Source of the DNA: a virus
Strand: one strand, 5' to 3'
Length of the DNA stretch: 64,000 nucleotides
Virus record (IMG/VR): IMGVR_UViG_3300021168_000013
Shown here: positions 59,967-61,717 of the stretch, in pieces
Layout of the letters: each line of letters starts with the position of its first letter
How positions within the stretch are numbered: position 1 is the stretch's first letter
Program-made: the position numbers and the translations under genes
The notes under the pieces: generated by a model
The model's input: the letters and a program-made list of their open reading frames with translations, nothing else
Databases searched by the model: none
Told to the model about the DNA's origin: nothing

Positions 59967-61673
59967 ATGAAAAAAACCAGAATTTATAAATACGCTCTAA
60001 ATCCTACTCCTTCACAGAAGGAACAATTGGAAAAATGTGGCAAAGTTTCTCGTTTTCTTTGGAATTCCTTGGTTCATCAAACGAACTTTGCATTGCGCGA
60101 AATGGATAATGGAAGGCGTTCTAATATTGAAAATGAATATAAGACTTTAATAAAATCCAAAAATTTAATTGGTCAAAGGGTGACTTTTGTGAATGCTATA
60201 GCTAAAGAAAAGCAAATATCCAAAAAAGATGCGTTGAACATATTTGTGGAAGAAAAAGCAAAAGAAGACATTGTAATATTCAAAAGAAAAAAAGCAAAAA
60301 AAGGACTACCAATTGGGAGTAGAGCAATACGTAAATCAAATAGAAAATTGGCAGGTAAATATGCTATGGAAAAAATAAATTCCAAACGTAATGCGTTAAT
60401 ATCTGGAAATCAAAAATCTGTATGGACTGGCATTCAAGCAAAATGGATTGACTTTTTAAGTAATTGGGATAGTGGGGTATGTAAATCTCCTAGAAAGAAA
60501 AAGAGATACCAGATATCGGCTATCCAAAAACAAATTCATAATGGAAAATGTGATATAGCAAAATATGTAGATTTATCATGGTGTGGATCAGCGTGTTTGG
60601 AAAAAGTAGAAGTTATAAAACACCGAGAATTTCCCATAAACTCAAAAATAAATCAAATTGCTCTCACAAAAGATAGTCAATCTCGATGGTATATATGTTG
60701 TTTTATAGAAGCCGATGAATCGGTGTTTCAACGTAAATTTACAAAAACTGGAAAAACTGTAGGTATTGATCCGGGGTTGAAAACCGCATTGACTACTTCA
60801 GACGGAAAAAAGATTACACCAGTAGGTTTATATTCACATAATGCACAGGAACGTCGTTTAAAGAAATTAAGTAGAAAATTGGATAGACAAACTAGAATTA
60901 ATAATCCAGATTGTTTTAATGAAAATGGGACATGGAAACGAGGAAAACGTATATATAATAGAACAAAAGGAATGTTAGAAACTATTATAAAAATGACTTC
61001 TATTAGAAAATATTTTGTGGATGCAAAAACCAATTATTACCATAACACGGCTATCCAATTGTTAAATCAATATGATATCATTGGGGTGGGTGATGCCAAA
61101 ATTCACACATTCATTAAAGGAGAAGGAAAAATCAAAAGAGTAAATAATTTAAAGATAAGAGAACATGCTATATCAGGATTCAAGAATATATTAAAAGATA
61201 AAGCCAAATTATCATTGACACCAAAACATATCTATGATAATATATCAGAGAAATATACCACAGTCACTTGTTCTAATTGTAATAAATTGACGGGACCTAG
61301 TGGTGAAAAAGATTTAAATATTAGAAATTGGACATGTTCAGAATGTGGTTCAAACCATGATCGTGATGTAAATGCCGCAATAAATATTAAAAATAAGACT
61401 TTAACGACTGTAGCACAAACAGTTAGTGATGGGAAACCATCAAAAGTCCGTAGCGCAACGAAGCTGTCTCGTAAGAGACAAAATGCCCGTGCTATGGAAA
61501 CCAAAAATTCGCAAGATTTTGGGCCGATGTCAATACCGTTTACGAGTGCTCAAGTGAGCAATCAGACAATCGAAGATGCTCGCATCCCAGAAAAATCTGT
61601 TACAGAACATTTTACGAAAGTATTATTATCTGTGGAAACAACTGCCCCACTCAAAAAAGTGGAGTGCTCGTAA
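59967..61673 (+). CDS. CRISPR-associated TnpB/Cas12-like RuvC nuclease with rearranged (Fanzor-type) active site
   Basis: N-terminal YKYALNPT..Q...L; RuvC-I GIDPG; RuvC-II GVGD; SEKYTT-CSNC...CSEC-HDRDVNAAINI. Confidence 0.9.
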   Translation: MKKTRIYKYALNPTPSQKEQLEKCGKVSRFLWNSLVHQTNFALREMDNGRRSNIENEYKTLIKSKNLIGQRVTFVNAIAKEKQISKKDALNIFVEEKAKEDIVIFKRKKAKKGLPIGSRAIRKSNRKLAGKYAMEKINSKRNALISGNQKSVWTGIQAKWIDFLSNWDSGVCKSPRKKKRYQISAIQKQIHNGKCDIAKYVDLSWCGSACLEKVEVIKHREFPINSKINQIALTKDSQSRWYICCFIEADESVFQRKFTKTGKTVGIDPGLKTALTTSDGKKITPVGLYSHNAQERRLKKLSRKLDRQTRINNPDCFNENGTWKRGKRIYNRTKGMLETIIKMTSIRKYFVDAKTNYYHNTAIQLLNQYDIIGVGDAKIHTFIKGEGKIKRVNNLKIREHAISGFKNILKDKAKLSLTPKHIYDNISEKYTTVTCSNCNKLTGPSGEKDLNIRNWTCSECGSNHDRDVNAAINIKNKTLTTVAQTVSDGKPSKVRSATKLSRKRQNARAMETKNSQDFGPMSIPFTSAQVSNQTIEDARIPEKSVTEHFTKVLLSVETTAPLKKVECS

Positions 61674-61717
61674 AGTCAGGTTGACGAACTTTATTATAAA
61701 CGAGTTGTGTGAAGGCT
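61407..61717 (+). ncRNA. Predicted structured scaffold RNA (omegaRNA/tracrRNA-like) overlapping the nuclease 3' end
   Basis: Five GNRA-capped hairpins and long-range helices found by eye; ends at the first repeat. Confidence 0.7.

Follow-up and report, generated by a model that had tools for sequence, protein, structure and literature searches.

A probable guide-RNA scaffold within the 3′ end of a phage TnpB-like nuclease gene adjoining a CRISPR array

In Cas12n systems the nuclease has a disordered C-terminal tail, and the DNA encoding this tail also holds the trans-activating CRISPR RNA (tracrRNA; CRISPR, short palindromic repeats that are clustered and regularly interspaced) (PMC12216341; bioRxiv 10.64898/2026.03.27.714800). 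The tracrRNA of Cas12n (type V-N, formerly V-U4/C2c9; structure 9J09) that overlaps the open reading frame (ORF) is credited to Chen et al. 2023, as cited in PMC12216341. Predicted Cas12n tracrRNAs are 100-200 nucleotides (nt) long, and for both TnpB and Cas12n the scaffold is reported to be made from the nuclease transcript (bioRxiv 10.64898/2026.03.27.714800). In the Cas12n single-guide RNA (sgRNA), a pseudoknot between nt -4 to -2 and the 5′ region extends stem 1, and a pseudoknot of this type lies in the core common to the TnpB, Cas12f and Cas12n guides (PMC12216341). The TranC nucleases, described as transposon-CRISPR intermediates, use a split omega-RNA guide (Jin et al., Cell 2025, as cited in PMC13565253; LaTranC structure 9JFO), and in TranC clades 11 and 20 the tracrRNA lies outside the C-terminal domain (CTD) (bioRxiv 10.64898/2026.03.27.714800). 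Here we describe a locus in 64,000 nt of viral DNA (IMG/VR record IMGVR_UViG_3300021168_000013), the whole of which is referred to as the window, in which the gene for a 568-amino acid (aa) TnpB-like nuclease is followed directly by a CRISPR array. An earlier note, made from the sequence alone, had drawn attention to a possible structured RNA of ~310 nt in the 3′ end of this gene. Comparison with related loci leads us to conclude that positions 61404-61717 on the plus strand are, in all likelihood, the guide-RNA scaffold of the overlapping nuclease, equivalent to an omega-RNA or a tracrRNA.

Fold, covariation and repeat contacts of the scaffold RNA

The scaffold has a core of 13 predicted helices (61404-61685, plus strand), which overlaps codons 480-568 of the nuclease ORF and the first 12 nt past its stop codon, followed by an unstructured 3′ tail of 32 nt (61686-61717) that lies between the core and repeat 1 and bears the anti-repeat. 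The segment 61407-61717 folds on the plus strand with a minimum free energy of -95.8 kcal/mol (z = -6.39; RNAfold, 100 dinucleotide shuffles), and z is -3.8 for the minus strand. The core is closed by two long-range helices, helix 7 (61529-33/61681-85) and helix 8 (TTTACGAGTGCTC/GAGTGCTCGTAAA, 61539-51/61662-74), through GTCAA/TTGAC and TTTACGAG/CTCGTAAA pairs respectively; the nuclease stop codon, TAA at 61671-73, falls within helix 8. The remaining stems include helix 2 (61428-41), in which GATGG and CCATC flank a GAAA loop, helix 3 (TCCGTAGC/GCTATGGA, 61447-54/61491-98), which encloses a hairpin of variable length, helices 5 and 6 (61501-22), which make up a GCAA hairpin, helix 12 (TAC-GAAA-GTA) and helix 13 (CACT/AGTG), all on the plus strand. 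A search of Rfam with the scaffold gave no match at E <= 1.

The nuclease has 24 close homolog clusters among 5.8 billion proteins (E 1e-191 to 8e-51), after which the scores drop to generic TnpBs. The close homologs are all metagenomic, with several on contigs of 98-364 kb that carry mostly small unannotated genes, and the window protein is itself recorded on a 183-kb contig. No member of the family was found in the GTDB prokaryote genomes. Among the IMG/VR viral contigs, a whole-protein profile recovered distant TnpBs only, a family-specific profile recovered nothing, and a scan with the scaffold DNA motif gave one match, which was judged to be chance. A scan of JGI metagenomes added one new homolog in four copies and one N-terminal fragment at a contig end, which stops short of the scaffold.

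Eleven scaffolds were compared, those of the window and of ten distinct loci (L081, L082, L084, L086, L087, L092 and L094-L097), L088-L090 being copies of L087; the alignment (A3) runs from just past the RuvC-III motif through the first repeat. RNAalifold places 74 pairs in 13 helices on this alignment, and 48 of the 74 pairs show compensatory double changes. The proportion of paired cells is 90.7%, falling to 39-42% in controls with the 3′ partners shifted 1-3 columns along, and the covariation score is 0.47, as against ~0.10 in the same slid-partner controls; none of 500 column shuffles matched the observed covariation. The structured RNA put forward in the earlier note is thus confirmed both by the z-score of its fold and by strong conservation and covariation across homologous loci. 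Nearly all of the stems that had been picked out from the single sequence are conserved with covariation in the homologs (helices 2, 3, 5-8, 12 and 13), and the accompanying rise in GC content is also seen, the ORF having 0.25-0.33 and positions 61400-61700 having 0.38-0.45. A proposed TGT-GGAA-ACA hairpin found no support, its TGT being part of the 3′ strand of helix 11. The many conserved G-U pairs identify the plus strand as that of the scaffold, in keeping with the GNRA loops, which the earlier note had read on that strand. The RNA had been thought to end exactly at repeat 1; the structured core stops at 61685, and it is the 32-nt tail that extends to repeat 1 at 61718.

A covariance model of the 5′ domain (R1), run on 80 more distant phage TnpB loci, matched only the window itself. 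Because no related RNA was recovered at those loci, the earlier description of the scaffold as omega-derived draws on its position and architecture and not on recognizable kinship with the RNAs of distant TnpBs.

In 9 of the 11 loci the scaffold leads into an array or, where the contig breaks off, into its first repeat; L086 has an array of 11-nt repeats, and L092 has a single repeat. Across the loci the first repeat aligns in A3 as though scaffold and repeat were a single RNA with the repeat at its 3′ end. A pseudoknot is predicted between CACAA in the helix-1 loop (61414-61418, plus strand) and UUGUG at repeat nt 30-34 (61747-61751 in repeat 1). This pairing emerged from an unanchored scan, in which every 5-column window of the scaffold was set against the final 16 nt of the repeat from its own lineage at the eight loci with a complete repeat, and only one window, the helix-1 loop with repeat positions -7 to -3, was fully paired at all eight. 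Two positions of the pseudoknot covary, with A-U replaced by G-C in L094 and the outer pair appearing as A-U, G-C, U-A or G-U. On A3 the pseudoknot is 100% paired, versus 14-47% when slid, and its result was equalled by 1 of 2000 permutations of repeats to scaffolds. An earlier search anchored on the last base of the repeat had found nothing, and the middle of the repeat showed no consistent pairing partner.

A sliding scan of own versus other repeats shows that only the 3′ tail (A3 columns 326-370, ~61672-61718) is specific for the repeat of its own lineage (mean rank 1.6-2.0 of 8), and the partner of this anti-repeat is the 5′ half of the repeat. The helices are perfect over 10-11 bp in L084, L092 and L095, 9 bp in L086, 8 bp in L094 and 7 bp in L082 and L097, and the pairing energy of tails with their own repeats averages -11.95 kcal/mol, compared with -7.82 +/- 0.80 kcal/mol for permuted repeats (0/20000 permutations). 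Because the pseudoknot and the anti-repeat link the scaffold to the repeats, the covarying former and lineage-specific latter support the proposal that it acts as a tracr-like RNA or is fused to the first CRISPR RNA (crRNA), and leave both the trans and the cis form of that proposal standing. The 9-nt anti-repeat that had been suggested with some reserve (AAAGTATTA, 61617-25) was not borne out; it belongs to a conserved covarying hairpin formed by helices 11 and 12 and carries no own-repeat signal, the contacts being made instead by the helix-1 loop and the 3′ tail.

The protein tail and alternative readings

The end of the nuclease had struck the earlier reader as low in information; no codon selection was detected on the tail. 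Mean pairwise identity at the three codon positions is 0.64/0.73/0.43 for the 200 codons that precede the RuvC-III motif and 0.61/0.61/0.61 within the scaffold, in paired and unpaired columns alike. The median pN/pS (Nei-Gojobori proportions) is 0.91 in the tail versus 0.42 in the core, and because the tail combines this ratio with a pS of only 0.3-0.5 (0.6-0.9, and saturated, in the core), its synonymous sites are constrained as much as its replacement sites. The ORF stops early after the RuvC-III RD motif in L082 (53 codons) and L087-90 (36 codons), and at these loci the scaffold continues and still covaries. In the AlphaFold model residues 486-568 have a pLDDT of 25-32, and the remainder of the protein averages well above 80. 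The tail (aa 486-568) is thus not selected as protein and, as part of the guide-scaffold reading, is likely to be a disordered, dispensable by-product of translating the scaffold.

The converse, that the C-terminal ~85 residues function as protein and that the RNA fold is incidental, we find barely credible, even though many homologs can be aligned here at the amino-acid level. In 9 of the 11 loci (window included) the ORF frame crosses the scaffold without meeting a stop other than its natural one, as against 2-9 stops in the other two frames, and the indels of the eight ORF-retaining homolog loci are all multiples of 3, with six frame-shifting indels in the early-stop L087. Such an open frame, however, points to translation through the region or to stop avoidance and not to the residues themselves, and a functional tail was rejected on the codon tests (no third-position excess, and a pN/pS of ~0.9 with synonymous change suppressed), on the early stop codons, by which L082 and L087-90 truncate the ORF yet keep the RNA, and on the low pLDDT; compensatory change in 48 base pairs also stands against it. 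Since stops are absent from the ORF frame and indels keep to multiples of 3 while pN/pS is 0.91, the reading frame seems to be kept open without selection on its residues. Ongoing translation may, for instance, serve to sustain transcription into the array.

Two further readings concern the role of the RNA. The scaffold might work in cis only, as the omega-RNA of a transposon does, joined to repeat 1 and spacer 1, the later units being either unused or a reservoir recombined into the first position; scaffold, tail and repeat 1 adjoin one another and can be aligned between loci as a single unit, L092 carries only one repeat and lacks an array, the newest spacer adjoins the scaffold in a nested series of arrays (L087, L089 and L090; see below), and the anti-repeat of the window is weak. 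We nevertheless think exclusive use in cis unlikely, as both pairing elements are kept in repeats 2-6, with a C to T change in the anti-repeat target of repeat 3 preserving a G-U pair, as arrays of 2-11 units persist in most lineages, and as trans pairing is used by the Cas12n and TranC systems (PMC12216341; PMC13565253). Considerably less probable again is a regulatory RNA or DNA element with no guide function, such as an mRNA stabiliser, a control of translation or termination, or a CRISPR leader read by an integrase. A leader would account for the position between coding core and array and for spacer gain that seems polarised to the scaffold side, and the lack of an Rfam match is in line with an element of another kind, but a leader acting as DNA would not give RNA-type compensatory changes and G-U pairs, and the combination of a covarying pseudoknot at the guide-proximal end of the repeat with a co-evolving anti-repeat is specific to a guide scaffold. 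The 32-nt tail may still double as the CRISPR leader.

Several observations weigh against the guide-scaffold reading itself. The anti-repeat of the window pairs GAGTTGT (61702-08) with ATGACTC (repeat nt 7-13) over 7 bp that include 2 G-U pairs, and its energy of -7.5 kcal/mol, rank 3 of 11, is among the weakest of the loci. The alignment holds only 11 sequences, whose relatedness inflates the shuffle statistics, although it leaves the slid-partner controls unaffected. The position of the canonical RuvC-II glutamate (E278 in ISDra2) is occupied by an invariant glycine, Gly375 (IIGVGD, 61086-61094), so that catalysis by the nuclease is assumed to hinge on a relocated residue, presumably Glu428 (ISEKYTT, 61248-61250), which is invariant across the family (protein alignment A1) and lies 53 residues downstream of Gly375. 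Lastly, the window spacers have no protospacer in the INPHARED phages, the PLSDB plasmids, or the window and all fetched loci, and exact 22-mers of four of them have no match in IMG/VR.

The nuclease gene, its neighbors and the arrays

The nuclease ORF (59967-61673, plus strand) encodes a TnpB-like type V effector with an N-terminal HTH_OrfB domain, a RuvC domain and a zinc-finger TNB domain (Pfam Cas12f1-like_TNB, 5.6e-15). It scores 109.9 bits with the curated NCBIfam model NF040570 guided_TnpB, above the cutoff of 100, and fails the curated C2c8 model NF038192 V_cas_c2c8 (type V-U2) with 49.1 bits against a cutoff of 350. Of the PADLOC profiles, Cas12f (4.9e-27) scores better than Cas12u4 (9.6e-23), which matches at near full length (residues 3-513) and has no curated cutoff. 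The best Foldseek matches of the AlphaFold model are the TnpB structures 8h1j and 8iaz (ISDra2 and ISFba1; TMt 0.68-0.73), followed by Cas12p, Cas12f, Cas12m, LaTranC and Fanzor2.

A sigma-70-like promoter, recognized by consensus match only, lies just upstream of the nuclease gene (59926-59954, plus strand; TTGACA, 17 nt, TAATAT, with TG). A second such site, with the same TTGACA, 17-nt spacing, TAATAT and TG, is internal to the gene at 61215-61243, ~160 nt upstream of the scaffold start, and could drive a separate transcript of scaffold plus array; consensus matches of this kind are frequent in the AT-rich DNA of the window, with 24 found versus 14 expected. The genes around the CRISPR locus are phage-like (YopX, PTH2, GNAT, LigT-type 2H phosphoesterase and HNH). 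The PTH2 peptidyl-tRNA hydrolase gene (58976-59308) lies upstream of the nuclease, and the 2H phosphoesterase/LigT-family gene (62649-63176; 2_5_RNA_ligase2, 1.6e-11) is two genes downstream of the array. There is no Cas1, Cas2, Cas4 or transposase gene among the neighboring genes (~3 kb of the window for transposase), nor a transposase within 4 kb of the nuclease in four homolog loci.

The CRISPR array (61718-62109, plus strand) begins 44 bases past the nuclease stop codon and comprises six 36-nt repeats ending in TTGTGAC and five spacers of 34-36 nt; the repeat is absent elsewhere in the window. At its far end are two degenerate partial repeats (62141-62186, within the region 62137-62195, plus strand). 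The last of these, AAGGTGATTGTGAC, ends in TTGTGAC at 62186, 8 nt upstream of the ATG of the gene that follows, and retains the pseudoknot element, such that a guide made from it would match the start of the phage's own gene. Part of spacer 1 (TACCTCTTACGAGT, 61758-61771) is identical at 12 of 14 positions to TACCGTTTACGAGT in the scaffold (61534-61547, 5′ strand of helix 8), a match that may be due to chance or may reflect acquisition of the spacer from the scaffold region of a related phage.

The arrays of relatives vary considerably. Nested arrays occur in different samples of one phage type: L090 (1685-1800) has one spacer, L087 (5220-5480) adds two on the scaffold side, and L089 (4660-4830) has a further spacer beyond the L087 set, adjoining the scaffold. 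The series hints at a leader end on the scaffold side, with polarised gain of spacers and turnover of the arrays; as adaptation genes are absent nearby, host enzymes would be needed for spacer gain. In L086 (5700-6165; P0019, on a contig of over 110 kb) the scaffold is followed by one ancestral 36-nt repeat and then by ~10 units with a period of 47-48 nt, in which only 11 nt (GTGGTTGTGAC) are repeated and the ~37-nt spacers are unique. This mini-repeat keeps the pseudoknot element (UUGUG) without the part that pairs with the anti-repeat, and it is, to our knowledge, far shorter than any known CRISPR repeat.

L092 (4735-4830; P0002, 10 contigs) carries the complete scaffold and a single repeat-like unit, which ends in GTTGTGAC; a 9-nt duplicate, TGTTGTGAC, comes next, and after it ordinary intergenic DNA and a gene, with no array. 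This locus could represent either an omega-RNA-like single-guide state or an array collapsed by recombination. In L093 (3384-3500; P0017) the ORF stops 21 codons past the RuvC-III motif, and the array and almost all of the scaffold are absent, the remnants being AAGTCCGTAGC and a hairpin ending in TTTTTGTGAC; this locus has probably decayed.

Proposed mechanism and comparison with known systems

We propose that the nuclease transcript, or else a transcript begun at an internal start site, would supply the scaffold and extend into the array; the former route is available because no plus-strand terminator was found between the nuclease ORF and the array. With repeat 1, the pseudoknot and the anti-repeat stem would both arise in cis, and the product would be a natural single-guide RNA bearing spacer 1. 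After processing, the freed scaffold would pair in trans with repeats 2-6, as a tracrRNA does with crRNAs. The nuclease so loaded would cut DNA matching the spacers, the likely targets being rival mobile elements.

If this reading is right, the locus supplies a complete guide-RNA design for an uncharacterised compact nuclease (~485-aa core), comprising the boundaries of the scaffold, its two contacts (pseudoknot and anti-repeat) and the side of the repeat that faces the guide. It is usually for want of a guide design that such systems cannot be tested. An independent lineage with a helper RNA laid over a disordered tail would also support a repeated origin of type V systems by omega-RNA splitting, and the relatives, which have a single repeat, arrays of 36-nt repeats or an array of 11-nt repeats, offer material on how much of a repeat a TnpB-derived nuclease needs. 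A functional array in L086 would mean that CRISPR-like guide arrays can be both built and extended with a repeat well below the length of any known CRISPR repeat. A more speculative suggestion, for which we would claim only a tentative standing, is that this phage-only lineage preserves several steps in the passage from omega-RNA to CRISPR, namely a scaffold fused to an array, a 5-bp pseudoknot as the minimal link, and the 11-nt repeats of L086. Physical fusion of scaffold and array would then mean that whichever spacer is newest is always expressed within a single guide that is ready for use.

The Cas12n systems share with this locus a small TnpB-like effector, a disordered tail with the scaffold in its coding DNA, a downstream array and, in the sgRNA, a pseudoknot of the last repeat nucleotides with the 5′ stem region together with a repeat:anti-repeat stem; the PADLOC Cas12u4 profile also matches nearly the whole window nuclease, but with a poorer score than the Cas12f profile. 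The two differ in that RdCas12n (9j09) matches with only E = 3e-6 and is outscored by TnpB and Cas12f models, and in that the D-E-D triad of RuvC is noncanonical here (D287/E386/D484 in RdCas12n, as against Gly375 at the glutamate position). The scaffold core is also longer, ~280 nt versus 100-200 nt, and the window family was found only on phage-like metagenomic contigs, with none in the prokaryote genomes searched. Membership of the window nuclease in Cas12n is, on this sequence comparison, not established. The Cas12n protospacer-adjacent motif is A-rich, 5′-AAN.

The TnpBs of IS200/IS605 elements (e.g. ISDra2; 8H1J, 8EXA) are the best matches both by sequence family and by fold, and their omega-RNA, or right-end element RNA (reRNA), likewise extends over the 3′ end of the ORF and continues directly into the guide, the same order as scaffold, repeat 1 and spacer 1 here. 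In contrast, the window locus has no TnpA or transposon ends nearby and has a multi-spacer array in place of one fixed guide, its protein is ~160 aa longer, and the 5′-domain covariance model detects no related RNA at the 80 other phage TnpB loci.

As described in the source cited above, TranC also ties a TnpB-sized nuclease to an array and uses an omega-RNA split into tracr and repeat parts, a division recognized here by sequence comparison; the single repeat of L092 and the array-bearing loci resemble the two states reported there for TranC. LaTranC, the only TranC sequence compared, matches the RuvC/TNB region alone (E ~1e-10), and the window family has a Cas12n-like tail, unlike the novel subtypes of the preprint that were later matched to TranC clades, which have none (bioRxiv 10.64898/2026.03.27.714800). 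Cas12r of the Thermus Lalka phages is similarly a TnpB-derived phage effector, of ~564 aa, with a short array immediately following and no adaptation genes, but it is reported to use crRNA only, with 29-bp repeats and no additional small RNA, whereas the locus described here has a large covarying scaffold (bioRxiv 10.64898/2026.04.20.719267). A scaffold encoded in the tail of the nuclease gene is thus a layout already known from Cas12n and TnpB, and what differs here is the unclassified, phage-only lineage in which it occurs, not a new principle.

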